From a virus (lineage: Duplodnaviria > Caudoviricetes): a stretch of 51,808 nt of DNA. Numbering within the stretch: the stretch's first letter is position 1; every line of letters begins with the position of its first letter. The stretch covers positions 1 to 51,808 of IMG/VR virus record IMGVR_UViG_3300030107_003389; one strand, written 5' to 3'. Positions 5,728-51,808 of the stretch are shown here, in pieces. The notes under the pieces were generated by a model. It saw only the letters and a list, made by a program, of their open reading frames with translations. It ran no database searches and had not been told where the DNA came from. The translations under genes and the position numbers were made by a program.

Positions 5728-6430
5728 CGTTTCCTCCTTCTAGCAATTCTAATTGCTCTTTGCTAAATCCTTTAAATAAAGTAATCGATTCTGTCTTTTG
5801 CTCTTTTTTGCCTAATAGCCCAGCTATTTCCATTAACATTTTTAGCGACGATATTTTATCTCCATCTCTCGCTTCGTCGTTATCTACAATTTCTTTAGTC
5901 TTTAATAAAAGATATTTAGGTGTAATTTCTGTTTCTTCTAAAATTCTTTGTACTTCTTTATCTATCAACTTTTTAATCCTTTCAGTTTTAAGTAATAAAT
6001 TACTTCTTTCTTTTATATACTCTTCCGACTTAGCTTTAGGAAAAGCATGTTTAAATGCATCTACAATTCCTTCACCTTTTGCAATATACTTAGCAAAAAG
6101 AAATTCATTCTTAGTGACATTTTTTCTGTCTTTAGCAATATGCTCAGACCTTTTTCCACTAAAAGAGTAGATGTTGTCTCTCATCTTACCCTCAATCTTT
6201 TGAGAAGGAACACAATGAAACATTCCGATAGCTGTTCTTATATATGGATGATTGTTTAATGAGCCTTGTTCTACTATTTGACAAACCTGCCCATCATCCG
6301 TCAAAACCCAAGCATCCAAAGGAGCATTCCTCCAATCATCATATATTTTTTCATCTGGCATAACCTGCCTAAGTTCATCGATGTTTTCATATACGAAGTG
6401 CTCCTTCCCTTTAATTATTCTTTTTTTCAT
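5669..6430 (-). CDS. terS: Terminase small subunit (with N-terminal extension)
   Basis: C-terminal half (LFAKYIAKG..AFKHAF..LLKTERIKKLI..DKISSLKML) resembles TerS; upstream of TerL. Confidence 0.7.
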   Translation of the reverse strand: MKKRIIKGKEHFVYENIDELRQVMPDEKIYDDWRNAPLDAWVLTDDGQVCQIVEQGSLNNHPYIRTAIGMFHCVPSQKIEGKMRDNIYSFSGKRSEHIAKDRKNVTKNEFLFAKYIAKGEGIVDAFKHAFPKAKSEEYIKERSNLLLKTERIKKLIDKEVQRILEETEITPKYLLLKTKEIVDNDEARDGDKISSLKMLMEIAGLLGKKEQKTESITLFKGFSKEQLELLEGGNDVKKIATQTRQLPDMSDGD

Positions 6431-7170
6431 TTTCTATGTACTATATACTTAGGTTCTTCTTTACTCAACTGTATCTCTACCCATCCTTTAGTTTGTGGCT
6501 CTAAGATACCATATCGTGCGTATTCTGCATATCCTATGAATGAACCCCCTCGTACAAACCATTGTCTTTTAACTTCTTCATTATCTTTCATGATTTCAAA
6601 AGAATCTATTGGTTTAGCATATAGTTGATGATTATGACCTAAATAGTACATATCAGCTTCTGGAAAGATGTTTCTTAATCTAGTTAGTTCCATGTCTCCG
6701 TTTTTAGCACCACTCTTCCCATGACCACTTGCTAATACAAATCTTCCATTTTTATAGTTTATTACTGTATAGCCTGGAAAAGGAAAGTATGGTATTTCTA
6801 AATCATCACACATAACACGAATTATATCAATTCCTGCTAATCTTACGGAACGAAGAGTGTCATGGTTTCCACCTCTCATGAAAATACATTTATTCAAAAT
6901 AGGTCTTACCATAGTAACAAATTGTTCGTACTGTTCGTTATTGTCAAAAGCTTGGTCGCCTTCAGGAATATGATAATTAGGTGGTATAAACTCTAACATA
7001 TCACCATTTCCGAACCAAAGAGCATTTGGGTCTTTCTTTATCTTATCTATTGCTTTCAAAAAAAGCATTCGGTCAAAAACCTTGCTTCCTACATGAACAT
7101 CTGTAAGGCAATGTATATTAACCTTAGGCTTGTTTACCGTCTTTTCTAGTATTTTACCTGGAACTATCAT
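6427..7170 (-). CDS. Calcineurin-like metallophosphoesterase
   Basis: DVHVG, GD, GNHD, HG and GHNH motifs. Confidence 0.9.
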   Translation of the reverse strand: MIVPGKILEKTVNKPKVNIHCLTDVHVGSKVFDRMLFLKAIDKIKKDPNALWFGNGDMLEFIPPNYHIPEGDQAFDNNEQYEQFVTMVRPILNKCIFMRGGNHDTLRSVRLAGIDIIRVMCDDLEIPYFPFPGYTVINYKNGRFVLASGHGKSGAKNGDMELTRLRNIFPEADMYYLGHNHQLYAKPIDSFEIMKDNEEVKRQWFVRGGSFIGYAEYARYGILEPQTKGWVEIQLSKEEPKYIVHRK

Positions 7171-8360: not shown

Positions 8361-8497
8361 AGCCGAGCCTTAAAAGTGAGCCGATTAGTGCTCAGACTAT
8401 ATTTTTTGAGCACTTTTCGAGCCCTCCAAATCATCCAAATCATCAAATTAGCCCTCCTGAGCACCCTTACTTTACCGACGATAAAGCCAAATAATCC

Positions 8498-8690: not shown

Positions 8691-9062
8691 ATGAAAAACG
8701 AGTTAATTAACGAAAATACGACGAAACTTATCGACGAGTGCCAATTTGGTTGTGCATTGGAGATAAGCGAGAACATCGAGGAGAAAGCGAGAATATTACA
8801 GGCTATGCTCGTCGAGAACTTAGACGGAACAATTAATGCCTTAGTCGAGGCTTATGAGAAGCCATGGGATTATAGCCGAGAGGTTGTGGTTGATTTAGTA
8901 TCGACAATCAAGGGCATTAACACTTTCGACTTTGTCGTCGAGCAAGGGGATTTTTGCGATATTTTCCGAGCAAATGAGACCTTGAACGAGGTTTTTATCG
9001 TCGATGCTACTGAGGATAAATATGAGTTTATCGACGAGAACTTCGGGGAGGACTTTGTTTAA
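8691..9062 (+). CDS. Acidic early hypothetical protein
   Basis: GGAGGA RBS before ATG 8691; D/E-rich. Confidence 0.75.
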   Translation: MKNELINENTTKLIDECQFGCALEISENIEEKARILQAMLVENLDGTINALVEAYEKPWDYSREVVVDLVSTIKGINTFDFVVEQGDFCDIFRANETLNEVFIVDATEDKYEFIDENFGEDFV

Positions 9063-9312
9063 CCCGACGGCTTAACCGAGACAACGAGGCTTTGAGCACT
9101 TTGTATCGACAAGTGCCGAGAATTCGAGGGAAACCTCCGTCGAATACCCGACGGCTATTTCTCAGGGCTCAAATTCTGAGCACCGAGATAAGTGCACCCT
9201 TTATTGAGGGGAAAGTGAGGACTTACTGAGGAAAATTCGGCAAAAGCACGGCAAACTCCGTTCGCACGGGGAAGTGGGAACTTCCCTCCCTTTAAAAAGG
9301 ACTACGGAGCAA
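9063..9312 (+). ncRNA. Candidate structured non-coding island 1 (tandem short hairpins)
   Basis: GAGG-GAAA-CCTC, CCGTCG..CGACGG, GCAC(T)TTGT..ACAAGTGC, CTCCGT-TCGC-ACGGGG, GGGAAGT..ACTTCCC; ACCCGACGGCT occurs twice. Confidence 0.45.
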
Positions 9313-9351: not shown

Positions 9352-9771
9352 ATGAAAAACAACATTAACATCGAATTAATTAACGATAGCATTAAAACTG
9401 AGACAAATTGGCTCTTACTCGACGAGTTAGAGTTATATGAGTATGATAGTGAAATCCAAGAGAGTTTCCAATATCTTTCAGATATTAGAAATGGAGAGGA
9501 TTTTAAAGACTTGCCAAGAGATTTAAGGCTTGAAATAAAACAAATTCTCTTACAAGTAGAGATAGAGAGAGATAGTTTGGACTTCTTTCTTGATGATGCC
9601 GATAGTTTCATAAGGGAGAACTTTTGGGCTCTTGTATCAAACTTTGTTATCATCGGTAAAAAAGAGCAATTTATCAAACTTTGTTTAGATAAATTGAGCA
9701 TTTGCTTAGAGGACAAAGAGGATTTAATGTTTTTACAAACATTAAACCATTTATCTGAGGGCTCAAAATAG
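9352..9771 (+). CDS. Acidic early hypothetical protein
   Basis: GAGGAG RBS before ATG 9352; D/E-rich, helical. Confidence 0.75.
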   Translation: MKNNINIELINDSIKTETNWLLLDELELYEYDSEIQESFQYLSDIRNGEDFKDLPRDLRLEIKQILLQVEIERDSLDFFLDDADSFIRENFWALVSNFVIIGKKEQFIKLCLDKLSICLEDKEDLMFLQTLNHLSEGSK

Positions 9772-9822
9772 TTGCTACCATCAAAGATGGGAGCAAAAGT
9801 TAAAAGGGCTCAGTAGTAGTGC

Positions 9823-9874
9823 TCATGTTTAATCATATCTCTTTACTTTGTTTTTAGAGATATGATAAACATGA
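9823..9874. other. Long intergenic hairpin
   Basis: TCATGTTT-A-ATCATATCTCT ... AGAGATATGAT-AAACATGA. Confidence 0.7.
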
Positions 9875-9922
9875 AAACACTTAAAGCCGAGCAAAATCAA
9901 CCACTTATGGAGGACAAATAGC

Positions 9923-10114
9923 ATGAGTAAAAAGTATTCTTACAATAGTTTCGCCGACTTTGGAAAGGCATATAAACGAGGAGAATTGGGTAAAGACTTC
10001 TCGAAAACTCTTGCCGACAACAAGAGAAAACAAGAAAGTAAAAAGATTGTTAATAAGATGTCGGCTATTAGCCAAAATACTAACGACATTTTAAAATTCA
10101 TGGGGAGGAGATAA
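9923..10114 (+). CDS. Small basic hypothetical protein
   Basis: GGAGGA RBS; 63 aa. Confidence 0.75.
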   Translation: MSKKYSYNSFADFGKAYKRGELGKDFSKTLADNKRKQESKKIVNKMSAISQNTNDILKFMGRR

Positions 10115-10750: not shown

Positions 10751-11107
10751 ATGAAAAATACACAAGAAATCGCAGACAATTTTCAAAGAAAATTTGAGAA
10801 AGAGGACTACCTCTCTTTCATGTTGGATGAGTTCATCCAATATTTAAAGGAGGCAAAAGAGGACGGACAAGACATCGAGGATGTCTTGAATAAATGGAGG
10901 TTAGATACCGACGAATATCTACCTTTCAATAGTTATTCGTTCCGAAAACTATGTTGGATTTTCATAAATGCTTTTGCATGGTGTCTAAAAGACACGGATT
11001 TCTCCGACATAGAGAATTACGAGGATATGGAGATGTATGTAAAGATTATTCAGGGAGATTGGCATTGGCAAGACGACATGGATAATATCAACGAGGAGGA
11101 TAAATAA
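10751..11107 (+). CDS. Acidic protein; candidate Ocr-like DNA mimic
   Basis: 118 aa with 30 D/E (hand count), aromatic-rich, acidic tail; early position. Confidence 0.5.
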   Translation: MKNTQEIADNFQRKFEKEDYLSFMLDEFIQYLKEAKEDGQDIEDVLNKWRLDTDEYLPFNSYSFRKLCWIFINAFAWCLKDTDFSDIENYEDMEMYVKIIQGDWHWQDDMDNINEEDK

Positions 11108-11108
11108 C

Positions 11109-11459
11109 ATGAAGTTAATTACGAAAGAAATTCAAAAGAAATTAGACGGAAATCTCAAACTCGACGAGTTTGAAAGAAAACCTTATCTTAAATTATTTAA
11201 TCCGTGTGGACAAGCAACATGGCTTATTTCCGAGCATAATAAGGAAACTGGTTTAATGTTCGGCTTGTGTGATTTAGGACAAGGATTTGTCGAGTATGGA
11301 TATGTTAGCATCTATGAAATAGAGGCTATTGAACTTCCGTTTGGGTTATCTATCGAGAGAGATAAGTTTTTTAAACCAAAAACTACATTAAAAGGTTATT
11401 TAGACGAAATAAATGAGAAAGCCGAGGACGGCTATCCAACTATTATGTCGGTAGCATAA
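11109..11459 (+). CDS. DUF2958 family protein
   Basis: KLFNPCGQATWLISE...MFGLCDLGQG..EYGYVSIYEIE...IERDKFF signature. Confidence 0.85.
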   Translation: MKLITKEIQKKLDGNLKLDEFERKPYLKLFNPCGQATWLISEHNKETGLMFGLCDLGQGFVEYGYVSIYEIEAIELPFGLSIERDKFFKPKTTLKGYLDEINEKAEDGYPTIMSVA

Positions 11460-11995: not shown

Positions 11996-12050
11996 GCATT
12001 ATTAAAAAACATGAACAACAAAATTTCAACCAATTTGGAGGACAAATAGC

Positions 12051-13457
12051 ATGATTGTCGATAATAAATCAACTGAATTACAAAATCACGGAGGAACAGG
12101 CATGGAGAATAATATTCCGTCGGCTAATGAGATGTCGAACATGAAAGTAAAGTCGGAACTTCGCCCTATGATGAGAAAACTCGTCGATGTTTTACAAAAA
12201 GAGGGCTTAGCAAGTCGTAAAGATTGCTCAGATTACCGATACCAAATCAAAATGGGTAGCAAAAGTCAAATTATGGACTTAGCCAACAAGTTAAGTGAAC
12301 TATATGGAGATGCATTGGAAAATTTGCAACCTAATCAACCTAATCAACCTACACAACCTACACAAAAAGACGGCTCAGGCATAAAATTTAAGCCTCAGGG
12401 AAATGAAAAATCCGACGGAGATGATACTTCTTATGGAGGTAGAATAAATAATGTCGAGCAAAAAGTCGATGATTTAGCCGAAATGATAGCCAATGGGATG
12501 ATGCAAATTAAACCTAACGAGGTTAAAGATAATAACGGAGACGAATTAAAACACTTCCAATTCGATACCATAAAACTTATGTTGGAGGAGAATAAACAAG
12601 TGCTCTTAGTCGGAGATGCAGGTAGTGGTAAGACATACTTGGGTAAGCAATTAGCATCGGCATTGAATTGTGAGAATTTCCACTCGTTATCGCTTACCTC
12701 AGGGATGAGTGAGAGCCACATCACAGGTAGGATGAACATCGAGGGAACTTTCCTCACTCCTGAATTTATGCATATCGTCGAAAATGGAGGTTTAATTCTA
12801 CTCGACGAATTTGATAACGGAGATACTGATGTATTAGTCGGCTTAAATAGTTTATTAGCCAACGGCTTTATATCATGTCCTTTGAGAACAGGCAACGAAA
12901 TGGCAATTAGACACGAGGATTGTTATATTGTATGTAGTGCTAATACATGGGGTAATGCCAACTCAGGAAATATGTATGTGAGAAAACAACTCGACGGAGC
13001 AACTCTCGATAGATTTGTGTGCTCAAAGGTAGAAGTCGGAAATGATAGACGAATTACACATCGAATAATGGGCTTATCAGGAGATAATTGCGAAGTTCAG
13101 GAATATCCTGAATTAGAAATGCTATCGACATTAGAGAGACAAAATGCAGATTTACATGTCGGTAAATTAATGGAGATTTTCGATACCATAAAACAATATA
13201 CACTCAAACCTAACATGCAAATCAGACAAATGTGCTCGAATAGAGCCTATGAACAAGGTGCAAAATTAGTTAGACGAGGTATAACTCCTAACCAAGTGCT
13301 CAAACTATACCTACAAAATTGGACTGACGATGAATTAAAACGAATAGGTGTAGAGAGAGATAGAGCAAACGAGTTTTTCGGAGTAATATCGTATAATATT
13401 AATGAAAAAGAGTTCTTTAACGGAGTTAAAGACACACAAGGAGAGAACAATGAGTAG
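12051..13457 (+). CDS. MoxR/CbbQ-like AAA+ ATPase
   Basis: Walker A GDAGSGKT, Walker B ILLDEFD, sensor SANT, Arg finger DGATLDRF; QPN/QPT linker repeat. Confidence 0.9.
   Translation: MIVDNKSTELQNHGGTGMENNIPSANEMSNMKVKSELRPMMRKLVDVLQKEGLASRKDCSDYRYQIKMGSKSQIMDLANKLSELYGDALENLQPNQPNQPTQPTQKDGSGIKFKPQGNEKSDGDDTSYGGRINNVEQKVDDLAEMIANGMMQIKPNEVKDNNGDELKHFQFDTIKLMLEENKQVLLVGDAGSGKTYLGKQLASALNCENFHSLSLTSGMSESHITGRMNIEGTFLTPEFMHIVENGGLILLDEFDNGDTDVLVGLNSLLANGFISCPLRTGNEMAIRHEDCYIVCSANTWGNANSGNMYVRKQLDGATLDRFVCSKVEVGNDRRITHRIMGLSGDNCEVQEYPELEMLSTLERQNADLHVGKLMEIFDTIKQYTLKPNMQIRQMCSNRAYEQGAKLVRRGITPNQVLKLYLQNWTDDELKRIGVERDRANEFFGVISYNINEKEFFNGVKDTQGENNE
12327..12365 (+). repeat. 9-bp tandem repeat CAACCTA(AT/CA) x4 (QPNQPNQPTQPTQ linker)
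   Basis: Read directly from sequence. Confidence 0.85.
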
Positions 13458-14496
13458 AGGTAGTAGAGACGGATTTAGCCCTCAGGTAAATGATATTAAT
13501 CGCCCTTTGACGAGTAATCGCATAGTAAATGTATCACACAAGTTTCCAAATCTAAAAGATGTAGAAACTTCCTATGGGTATAATCCTACGGAGGTATATA
13601 ACTTTACCTATGGAAGTTTGAACGAGTTTATCGACGAATTAGTGTTCGATAGTTATAACGGAGACTATGATTGGTTTAATACTACTGGTTATCATAGTAG
13701 AAAGGGTAGGTATAGCGATTTTGAGACTACTCTCGACATAAATAGTAGACAAAAGATGCTCAAATGTATAAATCAGGGCTATACCTCTCCTAAACTTTGG
13801 GATGAATACATAACGAGGAAACAAGACATAATTGCCTCTCCTGAATTTGTTAATAAATTGGGCTCAATAGGTATTGATTGTCGTCGTAAAAGACAACGAG
13901 ATTTATCAGGCACTATCATAAACATTGACAAATACATGGGGGGAGAGGAGTGTATGGAGAGCATGAAAAGACAAAATAGCCAACGATGTATTAGGTTTTT
14001 TATCGATTATGCTCAGTCCTCAGGAGAGAACACAATGAGATTAACCAATAAAGTAATTATGGCAGTAGCAATATGTGAGAAAATTGAACAATTAGGGTTT
14101 GCTACCGAAATTTATTTCGGAGAAATTAGTCGCCCTACATTTAATAAGAGAACATCTTTTGAAAGCATGGGAAAGTTTAGTTGGGATAGCGACACTCATC
14201 CTATTACATGTTGGAAAATATTGGCTAAGCCCTCAGGAGTTAAAATCGACGAAACTTATCTATGCAACTATTCCTTGACTGGAATATTTAGAGATTTGTT
14301 TTTCGATTGGAGTAAAAATTGCTTAGCAACTACCGATAGTATCGGAACTCCTATGTATCACTTAATAAAACCAAGTGAAAATCAGGAGTTATACAAGCAG
14401 ATTAGCGATAGCGATATATACATCGGACACGGAGCAACATTTCAAACTCTCATAACAAATGTAGTAGGTTATGTAAATGAGGGCTCAGATGAATAA
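13450..14496 (+). CDS. Degenerate vWA-like partner of the AAA+ ATPase
   Basis: Coupled downstream of the MoxR-like ATPase; INIDKYMGGEECM, FFIDYAQS (degenerate MIDAS), IEQLGFATEIY. Confidence 0.65.
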   Translation: MSRGSRDGFSPQVNDINRPLTSNRIVNVSHKFPNLKDVETSYGYNPTEVYNFTYGSLNEFIDELVFDSYNGDYDWFNTTGYHSRKGRYSDFETTLDINSRQKMLKCINQGYTSPKLWDEYITRKQDIIASPEFVNKLGSIGIDCRRKRQRDLSGTIINIDKYMGGEECMESMKRQNSQRCIRFFIDYAQSSGENTMRLTNKVIMAVAICEKIEQLGFATEIYFGEISRPTFNKRTSFESMGKFSWDSDTHPITCWKILAKPSGVKIDETYLCNYSLTGIFRDLFFDWSKNCLATTDSIGTPMYHLIKPSENQELYKQISDSDIYIGHGATFQTLITNVVGYVNEGSDE

Positions 14497-14502
14497 AAGA
14501 AC

Positions 14503-14931
14503 TCTTAAATTAACCATACCACAGGTAAATGTGTTCCACCATTTACCATGGGTATCGGTTAATATTAAGAAAGTGAGCACTTTTTTGAGCACTAATACTT
14601 ATTCTTTCTTTGCTTCGCTTGTGAAAACAAGCAAAGCAAGAATAAGCATAGAGGCATGTGTGTTAAATAATTTGCTCACACAAAAAGTGGTGAGTAAATT
14701 ATCGCATGATGCTCGTGTTATACTCACGAGGCTTTTATATGAATTTGTAAAGCATACATGCCGAAGTATACTTCGGCAAAGTATTGCTAACAAATCATAT
14801 ACTATTGAGCATCCCTTCGAGAGTTTATTTTTGGATATTAGTCCAAAAATAAAACAAGAATATACCGACAAACGAAAATCTATTATTATTATTATTTAAT
14901 TATTTATGTTTTATAAATAATAATAATAATA
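14503..14931 (+). ncRNA. Candidate large structured non-coding island 2 (about 430 nt, at least 7 hairpins)
   Basis: Stems 14503-14570, 14598-14646 (GAAA tetraloop), 14667-14702 (G-U), 14736-14801 with perfect 20-bp palindrome 14759-14778, 14824-14853, 14881-14931. Confidence 0.6.
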
Positions 14932-14956
14932 AAAACCTTTTAGGAGGACAAATAAC

Positions 14957-15229
14957 ATGGCGAAATTTAGAATATCAATATCCGTTCCAATAGATTGGAA
15001 CATAGATGAGTTGCCAAGTGATTACACATGGGAAACTGATATAGAGGCAGACAACGAGGATGATGCCTATGATAAAGGCTACGAGGAAGTCGAGGATAGT
15101 CTCGATGTAAGTAGTGTTTATGATGAACTATACGAGGAAATGCATAATGCTTGTATATATTTAGACGGACAATACGATTGTGATTTTACTGAGTATGTAG
15201 AAGTAAGAGAAATCAAGGAGAAAAAATGA
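14957..15229 (+). CDS. Very acidic small protein (candidate DNA mimic)
   Basis: 28 D/E in 90 aa (hand count); IEADNEDDA motif; GGAGGA RBS. Confidence 0.7.
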   Translation: MAKFRISISVPIDWNIDELPSDYTWETDIEADNEDDAYDKGYEEVEDSLDVSSVYDELYEEMHNACIYLDGQYDCDFTEYVEVREIKEKK

Positions 15230-17780: not shown

Positions 17781-18389
17781 ATGAAAAAGAAAGATAGATT
17801 AACCAAATTGAGTGATTGGTATAGAAATAGAAAGCCTATGTATACACAATCTCATCAACCTATGTCTATGGATGTATTCGAGTATTTATTAACACATAAA
17901 TACATTACTGAAATATCTTTTAAAAAGAATTTTGGTAAAAAAGGTAATACTTCGCTTGTTAATTGCATACAACAATTAAGAAACTCAGGTGCAGAAATCA
18001 CTTCTACGAAGTATCGTCAAGGTGGAAAAATGCACTATGCTCTTAGAAATAGACATCAATTAGCAAAAGTCTTGGGAGTTAATATCGATACTTTAAAATT
18101 AGCCCTTGCAAATGCTCAAATAAGTGCTCAGACACTTGGTAGTAGCACTACCATTACGACACAACCTGTGCAATATCACAAGGCTACGAAGTTTGAAATG
18201 GTAGAGACTGATGCAAGAGATAGTAATGTAGAAGTTCCCGTGTATTATTTCATGGATGATATGAATAAAGTCGTTCTTGATAGAGCCCTTATGTGTAAAG
18301 AGTTTAATGAAAAATTAGACGATTTAGAACAAGGATTTGAGGATGCATGGAACGATAAGCAAAAGGACTATGCAGATGATAATAGATAA
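17781..18389 (+). CDS. Winged-HTH-like DNA-binding protein with acidic C-terminal domain
   Basis: SLVNCIQQLRNSGAEIT...HYAL resembles the wHTH at 23326; GGAGGA RBS. Confidence 0.55.
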   Translation: MKKKDRLTKLSDWYRNRKPMYTQSHQPMSMDVFEYLLTHKYITEISFKKNFGKKGNTSLVNCIQQLRNSGAEITSTKYRQGGKMHYALRNRHQLAKVLGVNIDTLKLALANAQISAQTLGSSTTITTQPVQYHKATKFEMVETDARDSNVEVPVYYFMDDMNKVVLDRALMCKEFNEKLDDLEQGFEDAWNDKQKDYADDNR

Positions 18390-18390
18390 G

Positions 18391-18608
18391 AAAGGAGGTA
18401 TTTCCTATGAGCCCGTAAACACACTAAAAGTGTGTAATCGGAACGATAGGAGTTCTGAGTATTGTTTACATTAAACATGTATTAATTCAACTTGCCTATG
18501 GGCATTAAATATGTTGTCGTGCCTAACTTAATGGATAGTGGGCATGGGATGTGCACAATCGGTTAGTGTATGTGTAAATAATGCACGGAAACTCGCCGAT
18601 TGCACACT
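18391..18608 (+). ncRNA. Candidate structured non-coding island 3 beginning with an SD + Met-Ser-Pro-stop minigene
   Basis: AAAGGAGGT-N7-ATG AGC CCG TAA (18407-18418); nested stem 18403-18451; stem 18550-18606. Confidence 0.5.
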
Positions 18609-18629
18609 TAAAACAAAAAAATAAAAGTG

Positions 18630-18659
18630 TTGAGTTTAAAGCAAATTTATTAGTATATT
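18630..18659 (+). promoter_or_regulatory. Putative sigma70 promoter
   Basis: TTGAGT-N18-TATATT, A-rich upstream. Confidence 0.5.
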
Positions 18660-18711
18660 GTTTTAGAGAGACATTTTTATTGTAAGTTTAACAATAAGTG
18701 AGGTTGCAGAT

Positions 18712-18912
18712 ATGCTTGATTTAAAAATTACTGATAAAATAAGTAGTGGTAAATTAAAAGAATTTACTTTTGTGCTCAGAAATAAAAGAGCACTTCAAGG
18801 GTTTATCACAAAACAATTTGTTGCTAAAAATAAGCAACAAGCAATTACTATGTTGCAACAAAATTGCGACTTAGTTTATGACGAAAAAAATGGAGATAAA
18901 TTAATTTCTTAA
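18712..18912 (+). CDS. Small basic hypothetical protein
   Basis: GAGGT RBS; 66 aa. Confidence 0.65.
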   Translation: MLDLKITDKISSGKLKEFTFVLRNKRALQGFITKQFVAKNKQQAITMLQQNCDLVYDEKNGDKLIS

Positions 18913-18921
18913 TTTTTTTTC

Positions 18922-18972
18922 TTGACTTTCGCTAACAAACTAATTAAACTAACATATAGTTAGTCTAACTAT
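18922..18972 (+). promoter_or_regulatory. Putative promoter with downstream TAGTTAG-T-CTAACTA palindrome
   Basis: TTGACT-N17-TAAACT (18922-18950); palindrome 18956-18972 shares a 15-mer with 8156-8170. Confidence 0.65.
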
Positions 18973-19012
18973 CTAACTTAGATAACTATACTTTTTTTAC
19001 CTTTATTCGAGT

Positions 19013-19270
19013 AAAAAGGCAAGGTTTTTAATTTTCCCTGAATTAGTTAGTTCTCATCAATTCATGTTATGCTATCAGGGTTTTCATGTTTTCCTTGCCT
19101 TTTTCTTTTTTAATCCTTATATTCCCTTATAACATGTCAGGTAGTGATACAATTACTTAAACATTTAATAGCACTTAAAAGGAGTGTTGCAGGTTTGTAA
19201 ATCCTGTTTACCTTTGTTGTTAATATTTAAGCAAATACAAAATTGGTTTGGCTACCTTATCGCTACCTGA
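19013..19270 (+). ncRNA. Structured leader/non-coding island 4 upstream of the recombination operon
   Basis: 12-bp IR 19013-19024/19093-19104 with inner CCCTGA/TCAGGG; 13-bp stem with G-U 19137-19149/19258-19270; TTGCCT-N17-TATATT at 19095-19123. Confidence 0.5.
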
Positions 19271-19288
19271 TTTAATTAAGGAGAATAT

Positions 19289-23704: not shown

Positions 23705-24027
23705 TGAAAATCTTTATCAAAAAAATCATTACTAAATGGTTGTATTTATACGAAAGTATTTATTCTAAAGAAACTCTTGAATATTACTTTGGCAAAAATA
23801 CAGACTGGTTTGATGACGAGAACATAGAAAGCGAAAAAAGAAAAAAAAACGAAGTTTCTTATAGCAGGAAATCTAAGTTCCAACCTTATAGATGTCCACA
23901 ATGCAAAAAATCATGGAGATATTATTCCATGCCTAAGGGGAAAGTTCCTCTTAGGGAATTTATCGGAAAAGGAATACCAATGGAGGAAAAAAAATGCCCA
24001 AAAAAATTAAAGTGCTCAAAAATTTGA
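23704..24027 (+). CDS. Zn-binding hypothetical protein
   Basis: CPQC...CPKKLKC; TAATG coupling. Confidence 0.65.
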   Translation: MKIFIKKIITKWLYLYESIYSKETLEYYFGKNTDWFDDENIESEKRKKNEVSYSRKSKFQPYRCPQCKKSWRYYSMPKGKVPLREFIGKGIPMEEKKCPKKLKCSKI

Positions 24028-24073
24028 ACCTGTGCTCAACTTCTGCTGCCGAGCACTCACCTAAGGACTGGCA

Positions 24074-24421
24074 ATGAGATGCCCTGCTTGTGGTTGGTCA
24101 AACACCTTAAAAAATTACCCTAGAAAAATAAAACAATTAGAAAACAAACTTAGCCATGAAGCCCTTGAACATTTAAGACGGCTTTTCTTAACAACATTAG
24201 ATGATTTAACATCATATACACTTTTAAAATCATGCGAAGAACTTGAAGATAAAGTCATTGAACATTGTGTAAATATATGGGAAAGAAGAAATTTAGAAAA
24301 AAAAGGCTTTGATGTATATTATTTCATTGGTATATTGAGAAATGAAAACAAGAAGTTTGAGAACAAACTGATTGTTGAAAAAAACAAATTAGAACAATTA
24401 CCACCTACTATTAATGAATAA
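24074..24421 (+). CDS. Hypothetical protein; possible helicase loader/initiator
   Basis: N-terminal CPAC; overlaps DnaB start. Confidence 0.5.
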   Translation: MRCPACGWSNTLKNYPRKIKQLENKLSHEALEHLRRLFLTTLDDLTSYTLLKSCEELEDKVIEHCVNIWERRNLEKKGFDVYYFIGILRNENKKFENKLIVEKNKLEQLPPTINE

Positions 24422-25772
24422 TAAAAATCTTGAAGTATCAAAAATGTATAGTGGCATGTCAGAACGAGAAGTTTTGGGATGCATGCTACTCGATGATAGC
24501 ACTATTAATGAAGTAATAAAGTATATTCCTACTAAACAAGTATTTTATCACAAAGACCACCAAAACATTTGGTCTGCTATTTATAGTCTGCACAAGCAAA
24601 ATAAGAAAATCGATTTAAGTGTTGTTGCAAACTATTTAGGAGAAAAAGGATTAAAGATTACATATTATTTAAGTGGAATTACTGAACAAATAGTATCAAA
24701 AGGTAATTTAAATACACATGCAAAAATTATTTATGATTTATATTTAAGAAGAGAACTTTGGAATAAGGTTGCGAAGTTTCAACAAAGATTAAAAGACGAA
24801 AGTTCTTATAAAGAAGTAGCAACTGATGTTAATATGTTGGGGAGAATTTCCGACAAATTCGCCGATATGCTCGATAATGGCAATAAGTCAATGGATTGCA
24901 TCACAGAAGAAATGGAAGAGGCTATATTTGCTCAAAAAAATCTATTACAAACTGGATTAAGAAAAGTAGATAAGTCAATCGTTGGTATGACAAAGGGCGA
25001 AATCTCCATTATTGCAGGTAGACCTGGAAACGGAAAGAGCACCTTAGCCTTAAATATGGTTAAAAATATGATTTTAGACGGCAAAAAAGTAATGTTAGTT
25101 AGTAGAGAAATGCCTAATGTTGAGATTATTAAGAAGTTAGTTGCTATGCATACTAATGTTCGTAATAAGGAAATGAGAGGAAATGCTCACAAACACAAAG
25201 AAGAAATCAAAAAAGGTTTAGAGTTCATAAAAAAACATTACACTTCGCTTCATTTATTTGATAATTTAAGAAGTCTCGATGATAGTATAAACGAGGCAAA
25301 AAAAATAAGACCCGATGTAATTATTGATGACCATGTTGGTTTTATTGAATTTCCACATTACGATAATAGAGATACTCGACATCGTATTGCCGAAATTACA
25401 AGAAGATATAAATGGTTAGCAAAAGAAATTGATTGTTCTGTAATCTTAGTCTCTCAACTAAACAGAAACATAGAACATCGAGTTGATAAGATACCAAGAC
25501 TTAGCGACCTTGCTGAGTCTGGTAATCTTGAGCAAGATGCCGAAATTGTAGTCTTTGCCTATTATCCCTATGTATACGAATATGATAATGCCGAGCACGG
25601 AGAACACGGATTAAAAATTATCATAGCAAAAAATAGATACGGAACAACATGTAAATTTGATATGGGTTATCACGGAGATAGTGCTACAATATTGGATAAT
25701 CCTGCCGAGGCTATTGCAAAATCTGAGGGTAGAGAACTTACTACTGAAGAAGTAGTAGAAAGTCTATTTTAA
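24414..25772 (+). CDS. dnaB: Replicative DNA helicase
   Basis: N-terminal SEREVLG/FY..HQNIW; IAGRPGNGKS, SREM, SQLNR, LSDLAESGNLEQDA, AKNRYG. Confidence 0.95.
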   Translation: MNNKNLEVSKMYSGMSEREVLGCMLLDDSTINEVIKYIPTKQVFYHKDHQNIWSAIYSLHKQNKKIDLSVVANYLGEKGLKITYYLSGITEQIVSKGNLNTHAKIIYDLYLRRELWNKVAKFQQRLKDESSYKEVATDVNMLGRISDKFADMLDNGNKSMDCITEEMEEAIFAQKNLLQTGLRKVDKSIVGMTKGEISIIAGRPGNGKSTLALNMVKNMILDGKKVMLVSREMPNVEIIKKLVAMHTNVRNKEMRGNAHKHKEEIKKGLEFIKKHYTSLHLFDNLRSLDDSINEAKKIRPDVIIDDHVGFIEFPHYDNRDTRHRIAEITRRYKWLAKEIDCSVILVSQLNRNIEHRVDKIPRLSDLAESGNLEQDAEIVVFAYYPYVYEYDNAEHGEHGLKIIIAKNRYGTTCKFDMGYHGDSATILDNPAEAIAKSEGRELTTEEVVESLF

Positions 25773-28700
25773 TTTTCTATAGTGCTCATTTTTTGTTTGA
25801 GCAATATGTCTAAATAATTCTTGAGAGTTTATGCGATAAACACCTGTAATATCTTTAAGTTCTGCTTTCATTTCATCATTTAATCTGCTTACAAAATCTG
25901 CATGGTCTGATATTCTTCTACCTTGTGTTGATTGCATTGATAGTTGTATAGGTTTTTGGTCTTTTATGTATGCTAATGCCATTTTATATCCGTATTCAAA
26001 CGATACTTTTTGACTTGTTCTTCCTGGATTAGCCATTTCGTGTTGATGTGCTAAGAAATATACGGTAGTCCAAAAACTTTGAGCCTTTTCTTCTATAGGT
26101 TTTTGAGAATAAAGAGTTGCTTGTAGTTGTTTATACATTAAACTTTTCGTCACATCGTCGTTAAATTGTCCAACACTTTCAATTTTTCTTATGTCTTTTC
26201 TATATTCTGATTGCAACATCCTCATATTTTTGAAATGTCTTAAATCTTTTTTAAGCCAATTAGCCTCTATACCTTTAATAATGTCATTAGACAAAGGAAT
26301 TGCTTCAAAAATTGCTTTTGCTCCTGCTTTTAACAATGCTACATCTTGACCATTAGCATCCTTATCTAATAACATTGCTCCTCCTTTAAACATTTGAGTA
26401 AATGCACCTATCATCCTTATAGGCAGTTGAATAATTGCAGGAGTAAATGATTGAAAAAAACCACCTGATGCTTGGTCTTGGTCCATTATACCTGAGCCCA
26501 ATGCATACATTTCACCTTTTACTGCGTAATCGTTCATCCTTTCAAGAGGAATAACGATGTTATTTCTATATTCATCCCAACTTATTTCTCCTTTTGAAAC
26601 ATCTATTGTAGATTTTGCAAAATCTTTTAATTTCATTTCAGGTTTAAATGCCTTAGGATTAGAGTTAAATGCATCAAAATATACATTTTGTAATACATAT
26701 CCTGCTCCCATACTTCCTGCTATATATCTTAACATAGGAGCAACTTCTCCATTATCTATCATAGGTCTAAACGCATTTTTATAAACATTTTCTTGAACAC
26801 GATAAGCAATACGATAAAACAATGTAAAAGGTTTCATCGCTTTAGTGCTCATAAAACGAGGCATAAACACAGGGTCTGCTAAACCTTGCGTGCTCGCATG
26901 TGCTGTAAAATATATTTTATCTAACGCTTTTTGACTAAATGCTCCTGTTTCAACTGCGTCTGCAATTTGTTTATCAGACAATTCTAACGCCTCTCCGAGC
27001 ACCCTTCTGGCTGTAGACTTGTCCATACCAGAAAACATTTTTATTGGCTGGTTTCTGAGCACCCTAAGAGCATCAGTCGCTACAACATCTCCTGTAGTAG
27101 TTGCTACTACCCTATTTAATTCTTCTGCTTTTTGCATCCAAGTAGTAAGCAATTTTCTAAATCCTGTTTTTGGAACTAATGTAGTTTCTAATATAGCATC
27201 AGAAGCACCTATAGCACCACTTGCTCTTGCTTTTTGCCATGCTTGATTTCTAAATGATTTACTCATAATCATATTATACCATGTCGAAATAACAGGTTTC
27301 ATGCCATGTGTAGTTAATAATTGAACATTTCCTAAAAGAATATTTTTTAGAGCAGAACGAGGACTACTTAAACCCAAAGAAGCAGTCCAAGATACTAAAT
27401 TTCTTGAAATAGGTCCAGTTAATTCATCATATCCAGGTCCATGAAGAATTAATTCTAAATCTTTTTCCATTTGTTCTTTAATATATTTTTGAGCACCTGG
27501 ACTATTTACTTGTCTTTGTATACTTCTAAACCTTTTTGTAAAATTTGACGAAAAGTCTTTCGAGCCTGGTTTAAATACACCTTCGTGACCAAAATATTTA
27601 GTAGTTGCAGTAATATTTGATGCACGACTTGCATATCTGTCCATACTTTTAGCATAATTAGGCTCATATATATCTATTATTTTAGCAATTCTAGTTCCAT
27701 CAATGCTATCTCCTACTTGTTGAGTCATGTTTTTTACACCTTGAATTATTTTTCCATTACTATCAAGAAACAATTTTGGAGGAATAGCATCACTTAAACG
27801 GCTATATTGTGCTCCAAACATACCATGTTTTTGACTTCCAGTAAGAACAGTTTCAAAAACTCCTTCTGCAAGTTCATATCTTTTTTCATATGGTAATTGA
27901 GCATATTCTCCATTTCTGATAAATCTTGCATCATGAGCTAGTATATGATTAATCATAGTTTCATGAGCATCTTTATCTTTCATAAAAAATTCTGCAGCTT
28001 CATCAGTAGTTGTTAAACTTACAAAATTAGGAGTTTTTGTTAAGTCTCTATATCTATAACCTTTTCCATCCCAATATTTTTCTTTTACTCCAGCTTTTTT
28101 CATCATTGCAAACATATCATCGGTATATTGTTTATGAAGAGCTACCATTTTAAGCATAGCATCATGCTCTTGAGCAGTTAAATTTGGCTGTAATTGCTTC
28201 ATAAACCTTCCTCTTGCACTTTTAGTTTTTCCTTCAATAAAATATGTAAGATTCTCGTCTAATAATTTTGTAGAAGCCTTAGAAAGACCAGAAGTAATTT
28301 TTTTCATCTGTTCTCTCATTACTGAATATCCACCTTTTAATTTTTCTCTAAAAGCAACCATATCTCCTAAGTCTTTTCCAAGAACTACTAATTCATCACT
28401 TCCTAAATCTCTACCTAAATTCATAAATTTAGTGTTAATTGGAAGAACTGAATTAATCCATTTTCTTATACCTCCTAAAAGAGACTTTTCTTGTCCAAAT
28501 AAAGTAGATAATGTAGATTCATTTACTCTAACAGCATATGTTTTGTCTGATTTTAACAATGAATAATATTTGGCAAGTTCATCACTATTCATTTTTTTCA
28601 TAGAATCTTTACCAAATAAAGCTTGTTTTAAAGCTGCATGGTGCTCAACACCTTTTTTAGTTGCTATAGGAGATTTTAACCCCATTGTTCTTTCTAATTG

Positions 28701-50952: not shown

Positions 50953-51808
50953 TTATAAGCCCTCCACATTAAATAGTGCATGTGCCTCAGGTAAACATAC
51001 TTCAAGACCAGCTTCGGTAAGAATCATATCTTTTCTTAAATCCTCATCTGCTGCTTGTACATTTGTTTGAACTTGAGTATCACGATTAATACCGTTACCT
51101 ACTAAAGGTCTGTAGTATAGTTTAGACATATCAGCCATAAGCATAAGCCCTGCTGAGTGACCTCTAAATAGAGGTTGTTTAACCATATACATGTCTCCAT
51201 GAACTGTATTAATTGCCATCACTTTGTGACCAAATGCTCCATCAGAATGGTCCATTTGAACCCTGTATGGTGCATTTGAATGTCCAACAGAAGCGTCAAT
51301 AAACGCACCGTCGGCAAGTTTGTTAAATAAAGTAACTACAGGTAAAGAAGCCATAACAAGTTTTTCACTTGAGCCTCCTCTTGCTGGGTCAAAAATTACT
51401 TCTAAATCAGAAAGCAATCTATCATAAGTCAGTTGAGCTTGTGTCATTGAACGAGCATAAGCTTTTCCTGATGAATATGATAAATCATTTGTTCCTGTTG
51501 TAAAAGTACTGTTTTTGATAATTTGTCCAACAATACCTTCTGTGTAGTTAATACCATTACTTCTTGCTTTATGATTGAACAACATAGCTCTTTCGATGTC
51601 TATTTTATGTTCTCTCAATTTGAGTGCAAGTACTCTCTCGAACTCATTTGCATATCCACGCATACGAGTTGCATAAGCTGTATTAGTCACTTCAGCTGCA
51701 GTTTTAAAGATTTGAGTATATCCAAATCCATCATCTATTGTGTTTGACCATACATCTGGTGAGCCAGTTCCTTCTGCAAACGCACTACCAATAACTTGAC
51801 ATTTGTCG
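50953..51808 (-). CDS. Major capsid protein, 3' part
   Basis: GYTQIFKT, REHKIDIERAMLF, RKDMILTEAGLE; in frame with 605..1. Confidence 0.9.
   Translation of the reverse strand, partial: DKCQVIGSAFAEGTGSPDVWSNTIDDGFGYTQIFKTAAEVTNTAYATRMRGYANEFERVLALKLREHKIDIERAMLFNHKARSNGINYTEGIVGQIIKNSTFTTGTNDLSYSSGKAYARSMTQAQLTYDRLLSDLEVIFDPARGGSSEKLVMASLPVVTLFNKLADGAFIDASVGHSNAPYRVQMDHSDGAFGHKVMAINTVHGDMYMVKQPLFRGHSAGLMLMADMSKLYYRPLVGNGINRDTQVQTNVQAADEDLRKDMILTEAGLEVCLPEAHALFNVEGL
51719..51808. repeat. 90-bp terminal direct repeat (right copy)
   Basis: Matches 1..90 with one mismatch. Confidence 0.95.

Follow-up and report, generated by a model that had tools for sequence, protein, structure and literature searches.

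What kind of element is the island of hairpins at positions 14503–14931 of this tailed phage genome, a gene for a large structured RNA, a small protein gene or a palindromic stretch of DNA? An earlier note on the same DNA had considered it as a candidate for a novel large phage non-coding RNA. The window, i.e. the whole stretch of DNA analysed, is a complete IMG/VR virus record of 51,808 bp, which is estimated to represent the complete genome. Comparative sequence analysis indicates that the 430-base island is a chain of seven hairpins maintained by evolution which is also an open reading frame. We consider it as a structured cis-acting element, not as a proven free-standing RNA gene.

Genomic setting

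The record appears circularly permuted and has a GC content of about 35%; its terminase is about 26% (<27%) identical to those of cultured phages. The genes between 9.3 and 25.8 kb are located on the plus strand and belong to early, recombination and replication functions. The remainder of the genome is encoded on the minus strand, including terminase, portal and a 2230-aa tail fibre. The recombination/replication set comprises a Sak annealing protein, a PD-(D/E)XK exonuclease, a RusA-like resolvase, an SbcD-like nuclease and a DnaB-like helicase. Just upstream of the recombination genes lies a 900-nt AT-rich stretch devoid of coding sequence (Table 1).

The island is placed at the border between two early gene blocks. 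It is preceded by the genes for an AAA_5 ATPase and a DUF7192 protein, the latter of which we take to be CobT/vWA-like, and it fills exactly the gap between the upstream stop codon (14496) and the next ribosome-binding site (14943). As the surrounding gene block is co-directional, the array must be transcribed in sense. The stop codon of the upstream gene overlaps the start region of the ORF that carries the island, termed carrier ORF. An alternative ATG of this ORF at 14489 is found 6 nt after GAGGG; its codon overlaps the upstream stop (ATGAATAA), and the first hairpin starts 14 nt past it.

Table 1. Coordinates of the hairpin island, its parts and the genes and segments referred to in the text (numbering of the window)
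Feature	Position	Strand	Description
AAA_5 (CobS/MoxR-like) ATPase gene	12051–13457	+	precedes the DUF7192 gene
Upstream gene (DUF7192 protein)	13402–14496	+	364 aa
Carrier ORF	14477–14899	+	140 aa; product would be basic, pI 10.1
Hairpin island	14503–14931		seven hairpins
H1	14503–14571		69-nt bulged hairpin, 30 pairs
Tandem direct repeat (G/T)TGAGCACT-TT(T/G)-TTGAGCACT	14573–14593	+	12-nt period, unpaired; 9-mer copies at 14573–14581 and 14585–14593
H3	14595–14649		55-nt hairpin; GAAA loop at 14623–14626
H4	14667–14702		36-nt hairpin; loop and tip variable; 3 pairs changed on both sides
H5	14712–14730		6-bp GC-rich stem, variable 7-nt loop, then GCTTTTATAT
H6	14736–14801		66-nt bulged hairpin; tip in the window a 20-bp palindrome (14759–14778)
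H7	14824–14853		12-bp stem (14824–14835 / 14842–14853); six pairs changed on both sides among relatives
H8	14881–14931		all-A/T palindrome, 18-bp stem, 15-nt loop
Small stem CCTT/AGG(A)GG	14936–14959	+	covers the Shine-Dalgarno site; then 17-mer GGAGGACAAATAACATG and next gene start
Downstream gene	14957–15229	+	90 aa, acidic
AT-rich non-coding stretch	18390–19288		900 nt, upstream of the recombination genes
DnaB-like helicase gene	24414–25772	+	10 kb from the island

Structure of the island

The seven hairpins (H1, H3, H4, H5, H6, H7 and H8) span 326 of the 429 nt and hold 127 pairs. With 254 paired bases (~59%) the island is less densely folded than the earlier note assumed, in which nearly every base was assigned to a stem. 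The features named there were all found in the sequence, in part with a different reading. The described 68-nt bulged hairpin corresponds to H1, which has 69 nt here, the GAAA-capped stem to H3, the 12-bp inverted repeat to H7 and the (TAT)n/(ATA)n repeat to H8, whose 18-nt arms are 100% complementary. The 20-bp palindrome in H6 is indeed perfect; the heptamers GATGCTC (14708–14714) and GAGCATC (14807–14813), regarded as the closure of its longer arm, are present but remain unpaired in the minimum-energy folds. A postulated mini-hairpin showing GAGC in the loop is more plausibly explained by an invariant tandem 9-mer, TTGAGCACT, whose first copy it represents.

The RNA fold calculated for the segment 14497–14956 amounts to −146.3 kcal/mol compared to −80.6 ± 5.5 kcal/mol for 100 dinucleotide shuffles (z = −12.0), none of which folds as well. 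Similar values were obtained for the minus strand (z = −11.5) and when DNA energy parameters were used (z = −12.2). Scanning the genome in windows of 200 nt identified the island as the strongest and longest structured region of the 51.8-kb genome, reaching down to −4.75 SD after GC correction; the GC content across 14650–15000 is 0.24–0.29. The island consists of long simple hairpins lined up one after another, with neither junctions nor conserved loops. GC-rich stems bearing a U-tract are restricted to H5 on the plus strand, the sole terminator-like hairpin there, and to the tip of H6 on the minus strand, and thus do not form a cluster of intrinsic terminators. Further convincing copies of the H1 or H3 cores were not found elsewhere in the genome.

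A search of the whole window against Rfam (4227 models) yielded no match at the gathering threshold and no family when relaxed to E-values up to 10, in line with the earlier statement that the island resembles no recognised family. The best sub-threshold match, to a miRNA-precursor model (31 bits versus a threshold of 88), reflects generic hairpin likeness only.

Relatives, conservation and covariation

The island is carried by seven relatives, found on one viral contig (L005) and six marine metagenome contigs (L007–L012). Together with the window they constitute a comparison set of eight sequences from one clade, five of which are close (window included) and three distant (L010, L011 and L012). 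Scans of viral contigs provided one close relative only, and scans of genome contigs yielded no matches to the upstream protein or the H1 core. Likewise, no match was detected in the GenBank phage collection, neither for the island and the surrounding 10 kb (blastn and megablast) nor for the upstream protein (tblastn). Parts of the region occur in 20 public DNA runs, none of which (0/20) is listed as RNA; contigs of four DNA runs reproduced the variants of the loci and revealed neither ends nor joints.

Among the four close relatives the island, with 91.7–94.1% identity, is more variable than its flanks (96.4–98.8% for the upstream and 98.2–99.6% for the downstream gene), and its differences are not randomly distributed. 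For the 169 pairs given, 91.9% of the cells in the eight sequences are paired, versus 39–48% with slid partners. Altogether 23 pairs are changed on both sides (2 of them in a helix at the end of the upstream gene, one of two helices in the structure string that lie outside the seven hairpins), versus 3–7 in the slid controls, and none of 500 shuffles matches this count. Base pairs are maintained by compensatory changes, as expected of a structured RNA, in a test which does not tell RNA hairpins from DNA hairpins. Transversion swaps (A-T to T-A, C-G to A-T) make up about half of the double changes; for these, no wobble intermediate is possible on the way. Besides H4 and H7, both-sided changes are found in the outer stem of H1 (7 pairs), in two outer pairs of H3, once in H8 (A-T to G-C) and once in the small stem over the Shine-Dalgarno site of the next gene.

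Variability is highest in loops and hairpin tips, and the loops differ in length between sequences. The loop of H1 is hypervariable and comprises 7–13 nt. The loop of H3 reads GAAA in five of the eight sequences and is 3 nt shorter in the other three, so that the GNRA loop, previously considered as a pointer to a function at the RNA or ssDNA level, is not conserved. At the tip of H6 the relatives have three other self-complementary sequences instead of the perfect palindrome of the window. In L010, L011 and L012 the middle of the island (about 14677–14870 of the window), including H4, is missing and non-homologous hairpins are present instead; H5 is missing in three of the eight sequences. The distant islands still fold well beyond shuffles (z = −9.5 for L012 and −7.4 for L010).

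Against this turnover stand a few cores. The H1 core, CCACAGGTAAATG / ATTTACC(A/G)TGGG, was found in all eight sequences, and its invariant arms sit in a segment which is 81–100% identical. The tandem 9-mer, H3 and H8 are 90–100% identical in the relatives measured. In detail, 19–21 of the 21 positions of the tandem repeat are identical to the window in the four relatives measured, H3 retains a 5-nt bulge and a C.A mismatch, and H8 is kept in the seven sequences that reach it, with 46–51 of 50–51 positions identical in those measured. In L012 the upstream protein is 69% identical and a stretch consisting mostly of the 3′ end of its gene 74% identical at the DNA level, and identities of the cores to the window are 20/21 (tandem 9-mer), 47/52 (H3) and 46/50 (H8); the downstream 90-aa gene, at 91%, reaches the conservation of the cores. 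According to the aligned relatives it is the nucleic acid that is constrained, with covarying stems, exchanged tips and nearly invariant cores. Loop inversion, a mark of template switching, was not seen by eye in the alignment of the relatives.

The open frame through the island

The overlapping 140-aa ORF announced in the earlier note is present, and the finding which that note had named as fatal to its proposal, protein-type conservation of this ORF combined with stems devoid of compensatory changes, was not obtained. None of the marks of a protein-coding gene, i.e. third-position excess, host-like codon usage and a family or confident fold, was detected in the carrier ORF. Variable sites are distributed evenly over codon positions 1, 2 and 3 (18, 17 and 17), compared to 14, 13 and 24 in the upstream gene. 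The codon-usage score of −0.16 per codon is lower than that of any of the 24 training genes or the 15 small early genes. Neither Pfam nor PHROG contains a family for the product, and AlphaFold2 modelling gave a mean pLDDT of 35 on the basis of a shallow alignment of five sequences. A profile search against 1.84 billion cluster representatives produced five hits, three of which are clade members and two weak matches to proteins of >2000 aa. Moreover, the same DNA is read in different frames between lineages, and the C-terminus of the product is not conserved.

The frame itself is maintained, being open in all eight sequences; an ORF of at least 130 aa arose in only 4 of 5000 dinucleotide shuffles. 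It comprises 140–175 codons in the five close sequences and 80–88 in L010, L011 and L012. Spacings between anchors differ by multiples of three: +4/−4 in L010, −2/−1 in L011 and L012, −3 in the H3 loop and 62 versus 65 nt in H6. In the B lineage (L005, L008 and L009) a spacing change of −1 is offset by a 22-nt insertion upstream (+22/−1). The sole exception to frame-neutral indels, a deletion of 1 nt close to the 3′ end in L009, merely lengthens the frame. Codons in novel contexts, absent from the relatives counted before, include 0/228 stops in frame, versus 21/228 and 20/225 in the other two frames. The count is in part circular, as stops delimit the stretches, and one substitution creates up to three novel contexts.

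The stop codon of the carrier ORF falls within the 5′ arm of H8. In the distant lineages the ORF ends 115–150 nt before H8 and covers only the 5′ half of the island. A possible Shine-Dalgarno site and start are available in three lineages, and public databases list the frame as a hypothetical protein on the basis of gene-caller predictions. From these comparisons we conclude that the frame is selected to stay open, whereas the amino acids are not under selection.

Strand symmetry of the stems

The earlier note had emphasized stems containing G-U pairs, which turned out to be rare, with 2 of the 127 pairs in the seven hairpins on either strand. Over the eight sequences they account for 37/1044 pairs (3.5%) on the plus and 72/1065 pairs (6.8%) on the minus strand, relative to a background of 12.3% and 9.1%, respectively, in 33 windows of the same gene block. 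The background folds better in sense (−83.9 kcal/mol) than in antisense (−72.4 kcal/mol), whereas the antisense strand of the island folds slightly better in 8/8 sequences, the energies of the two strands differing by 1–8%. Mismatches of both kinds, G.T and A.C, are present in the stems. A sense-strand C.A mismatch is invariant in H3, where it would be G.U on the minus strand, and occurs in H4 in seven of the eight sequences.

A strand-specific RNA signature, i.e. tolerance of G-U pairs and a better fold on the transcribed strand, was accordingly not found, and the nearly pure Watson-Crick stems without a clearly favoured strand argue against a strand-specific RNA. The conserved sequence is located in stems and bulges. 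Its position, together with the varying loop length, would fit stems being recognised in the folded state and not as a linear dimer site. The Watson-Crick stems would also fit palindromes homogenised at the DNA level; template switching is a reported origin of perfect stems (PMC8794818).

Functional interpretation

On the basis of these properties we tentatively rank first a candidate DNA-level palindrome array of the origin or recombination-initiation type inside a translated spacer. The array would act as DNA. A protein of the phage or its host would bind the H1 core, H3 and the tandem 9-mer, probably as extruded hairpins, a form of the target made probable by the loop length, which varies between 7 and 13 nt. 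Ready extrusion or unwinding of the DNA would be the contribution of the generic hairpins and the all-A/T H8. In its most probable role the array would start replication, either as an origin or as a programmed cruciform/break site, which would feed the phage's own recombination-dependent replication set. The island would be transcribed along with the early operon, and the open frame might let ribosomes coupled to the upstream gene hold the sense transcript unfolded.

An origin is favoured by an adjacent AT-rich segment suitable for unwinding, as H8 is 100% A/T over 51 nt, and the recombination and replication genes of the phage also agree with the DNA-level reading. Against it, only two tandem 9-mers instead of three or more iterons were found, the other direct repeats being short and present in two copies, and the neighbouring genes encode AAA_5 and DUF7192 proteins instead of an initiator or helicase. 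The AT-rich stretch upstream of the recombination genes is an at least equally good origin candidate, and a protein binding the array was not identified. The explanation of the open frame by ribosomes unfolding the transcript is ad hoc for an element acting as DNA, and the fact that a DNA element alone would not need an open frame counts against this reading, as does the restriction of the frame to the 5′ half in L010, L011 and L012. Perfect Watson-Crick stems could also result from template-switch mutations (PMC8794818) in an element working at the RNA level.

A close rival, possible although on the doubtful side, is a cis element of the sense mRNA, in which the island serves as a spacer of an early polycistronic transcript whose folding depends on ribosome transit. 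Ribosomes re-initiating from the upstream gene would run through the frame and keep the stems melted. Without translation the stems would fold and lead to RNase III-type processing, pausing, termination (at H5) or altered mRNA stability; expression of the downstream early block would thereby be coupled to translation of the block before it. The maintained open frame is integral to this scenario, and the covarying stems, the sense transcription of an array which fills the gap between upstream stop and next ribosome-binding site, the terminator-like H5 on the plus strand and the small double-changed stem over the next Shine-Dalgarno site agree with it. The position of H1 relative to the ATG at 14489, which overlaps the upstream stop, would enforce translational coupling. 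Conversely, the stems lack a sense-strand signature, as G-U pairs are rarer than in antisense and C.A mismatches are found in H3 and H4, and the antisense strand folds equally well or better. Only one of the seven hairpins is followed by a U-tract, and just this one, H5, is not universal; the ORFs of the distant lineages, in addition, end well short of H8. We know of no precedent for a translated spacer of seven hairpins, which also counts against the mRNA element. Rather unlikely is an obligatorily translated hairpin array, i.e. a cis element whose function would require folding as well as ribosome passage. It could form a giant translation-gated switch or timer between the early blocks, and in the boldest form the turnover of the tips could diversify the basic peptide in frame; to our knowledge, such a dual-use sequence has not been described for dsDNA phages.

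A free-standing large structured ncRNA transcribed from either strand appears improbable. The claim of the earlier note is borne out with respect to a real, maintained structure with compensatory changes, whereas its free-standing nature is unsupported in view of the open sense frame, which is unexpected for an untranslated RNA, and the Watson-Crick stems. The strong covarying structure, the lack of matches to known families, the slightly better fold and the higher G-U content of the minus strand are compatible with an ncRNA, and a weak sigma-70-like site on the minus strand (14951–14923) could drive an antisense transcript. This site is lost in L011 and L012, where the downstream gene differs; the long, nearly perfect hairpins form a plain chain without junctions, the loops, including the GNRA loop, are the least conserved parts, and stems of 18–30 pairs are expected substrates of RNase III. 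Equally small is the chance that the locus encodes a real small basic protein (pI 10.1), its gene being built of palindromes or diversified by their tips. The frame open throughout with its restored indels, the possible start sites in three lineages, the gene-caller entries and a clustering of the variation in discrete patches speak for a protein, and the even distribution over codon positions, a codon-usage score below all 39 genes scored, the low pLDDT, the profile hits confined to clade members and two weak matches, the missing families, the lineage-dependent frames and the variable C-terminus against it. Least credible, and very improbable, is a functionless by-product, in which template switching, a reported mechanism (PMC8794818; PMC8604942), would make and homogenise palindromes that are tolerated between genes. 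Such a process would produce the perfect Watson-Crick stems, transversion-type double changes, variation hotspots at hairpin centres and new mini-hairpins, e.g. the 22-nt insertion with GAAGT-CT-ACTTC in L005, L008 and L009; it does not account for an array that persists next to an upstream protein of only 69% identity, for the conserved tandem 9-mer, H3 and H8, or for a hairpin density kept despite sequence replacement. Phage genomes, moreover, rarely retain 430 nt of useless DNA.

Several more specific candidates were rejected. The motif TGAGCAC was inspected as a genome-wide operator, because it is 3-fold enriched relative to shuffles (46 versus 14.7), yet its excess over a Markov expectation is small (34 versus 23.5). 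It is probably a coding artefact, given this small excess, the sense copies mostly corresponding to x-Ala-Gln/His codons and the exact retention in L012 of only four of the eight sites outside the island. In other viral contigs the tandem 9-mer had four further hits, which belong to tandem repeats within coding sequence or to unrelated contexts. Hairpin promoters of the N4 type were dismissed, as a virion RNA polymerase was not detected; the protein of 2230 aa is the tail fibre and a 1699-aa protein has no assignment. For an HUH Rep protein with a single-strand origin, the best Rep_1 score was 17.8 bits (115-aa ORF) against a cut-off of 33.2, and NCBIfam gave none. Hexamers in H6 resembling the −35/−10 elements of ssDNA promoters are present in the window only.

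Comparison with known systems

Origins, injection-stop regions and single-strand origins are known examples of cis elements rich in palindromes, and structured RNAs are known as well. Unusual is the combination of seven covarying hairpins, hypervariable tips, hairpin replacement, ultra-conserved cores and an open frame with unconstrained amino acids. If the array is an origin or break site, it would mark the replication start in an abundant group of uncultured marine phages; if it works through ribosome transit, it would represent a new way of coupling gene blocks. For annotation, the locus is a caution that a hypothetical-protein entry may be such a frame.

The lambda ori inside gene O is the textbook origin in a translated and transcribed frame, and phages of dairy streptococci and lactococci possess repeat-rich, non-coding ori (PER) elements. 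Like these phage origins the island is a cis stretch of 300–500 bp located in the early region, in which direct and inverted repeats adjoin an AT-rich segment. Unlike lambda-type origins, it has two tandem 9-mers instead of four iterons, the helicase gene is not adjacent and no initiator was identified. In further contrast to phage origins, the island is dominated by seven different long hairpins, and its replication role is that of a candidate. Hairpin elements acting in ssDNA are exemplified by the intergenic region of Ff phages, the single-strand origins of plasmids and the ssDNA promoters (Frpo) of plasmid leading regions. They are recognised in the folded state, depend on orientation and belong to replicons that pass through a single-stranded stage. 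They share with the island several hundred nucleotides of consecutive imperfect hairpins and conserved sequence in stems instead of loops; the present genome belongs, unlike such replicons, to a tailed dsDNA phage with terminase and portal genes, in which no HUH Rep gene was found.

Among RNA elements, the RNase III hairpins between the early genes of T7 are likewise bulged, 50–70 nt long and located between co-transcribed early genes, but each T7 junction contains a single untranslated hairpin, whereas seven hairpins without strand bias are situated here inside an open frame. GOLLD, ROOL and the phi29 pRNA resemble the island in their length of hundreds of nucleotides, phage origin and covarying stems. 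They differ from it in that the island has no Rfam match, multi-way junctions or conserved loops, and in that its stems are long and perfect.

[quoted passage not shown] The same report describes them as untranslated regions of up to 1.2 kb which are located in the terminal repeat and contain paired DnaA boxes (10.1101/866236). A DnaA box of the form TT(A/T)TNCACA was not seen by eye in the island. In contrast to the iss regions, the island is an open frame. Both are palindrome-packed blocks of a tailed dsDNA phage which end the first gene block and are better conserved than many neighbouring ORFs.

Origin candidates and structured regions outside the island

The hairpin array at 14503-14931 (the island), itself a candidate origin-type DNA element, has a competitor for the origin role in an AT-rich stretch further downstream (Table), which could serve as an origin or as a promoter region. 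Within this stretch both GC and AT skew are reversed, repeats are scattered and at most one ORF of 66 aa is present. Two other regions are structured. The GC-rich block at the divergent junction, with a GC content of 0.50 in 9101-9300 vs 0.35 genome-wide, is strongly structured and includes short GC-rich stems, and the region containing the second long hairpin ranks next in structure in the genome scan.

The ORFs at the two ends of the record (1-605 and 50953-51808, both on the minus strand) join in frame across the record ends, giving 201 + 1 + 284 codons by coordinate arithmetic. Because of this fit, the assembly appears to be circular or circularly permuted, and the ends of the record would not be physical genome ends.

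Features of the phage genome within and outside the island
Feature	Position	Strand	Remarks
SbcD/Mre11-like DNA repair exonuclease gene	6427-7170	-	phrog_7339, E 3.6e-28; adjoins terminase genes
Paired TTGAGCACT-like words	8387-8414, 18111-18131, 24011-24039, 25781-25805		found in some places
GC-rich non-coding block	9050-9300		divergent junction of late (-) and early (+) genes
Second long hairpin, single	~9826-9872, within 9771-9925		between two early genes
17-mer GGAGGACAAATA(A/G)CATG	9909-9925, 11095-11111, 12037-12053, 14943-14959		spans ribosome-binding site and start codon
Invariant core of hairpin H1, CCACAGGTAAATG	14519-14531		one-mismatch copy CCTCAGGTAAATG at 13480-13492
AT-rich stretch	18390-19288		~900 nt, GC 0.26-0.31; directly 5' of exonuclease and Sak genes

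Repeated words and gene context

Words resembling TTGAGCACT are enriched about 3-fold over shuffles in the whole genome, where TGAGCAC occurs in 34 copies. Since the majority of the in-gene copies read x-Ala-Gln/His codons, this enrichment is probably in part a coding artefact; some of the pairs are intergenic. The one-mismatch copy of the H1 core lies close to where the DUF7192 gene upstream of the island begins. CCACAGGTAAATG and CCTCAGGTAAATG each specify Pro-Gln-Val-Asn in their own frame, and their resemblance may be due to chance. In the lineage of the marine contig L010 (positions 1-60, protein P0005), the open frame runs at least 55 codons further 5' into an extension which is unlike the DUF7192 gene and holds a third TTGAGCAC-like copy.

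The 17-mer marks four early gene starts (4 matches at up to 2 mismatches vs 0.01 expected). In three relatives carrying the island (L008, L011 and L012), an extra gene, of 112 aa in L012, is inserted directly after the all-A/T palindrome H8, and the insertion in L008 is flanked by copies of the 17-mer, which may serve as a recombination boundary for gene shuffling.

Nucleases of the SbcD/Mre11 type process DNA hairpins, and the presence of an SbcD/Mre11-like gene may be relevant to a phage in which a palindrome array is maintained.
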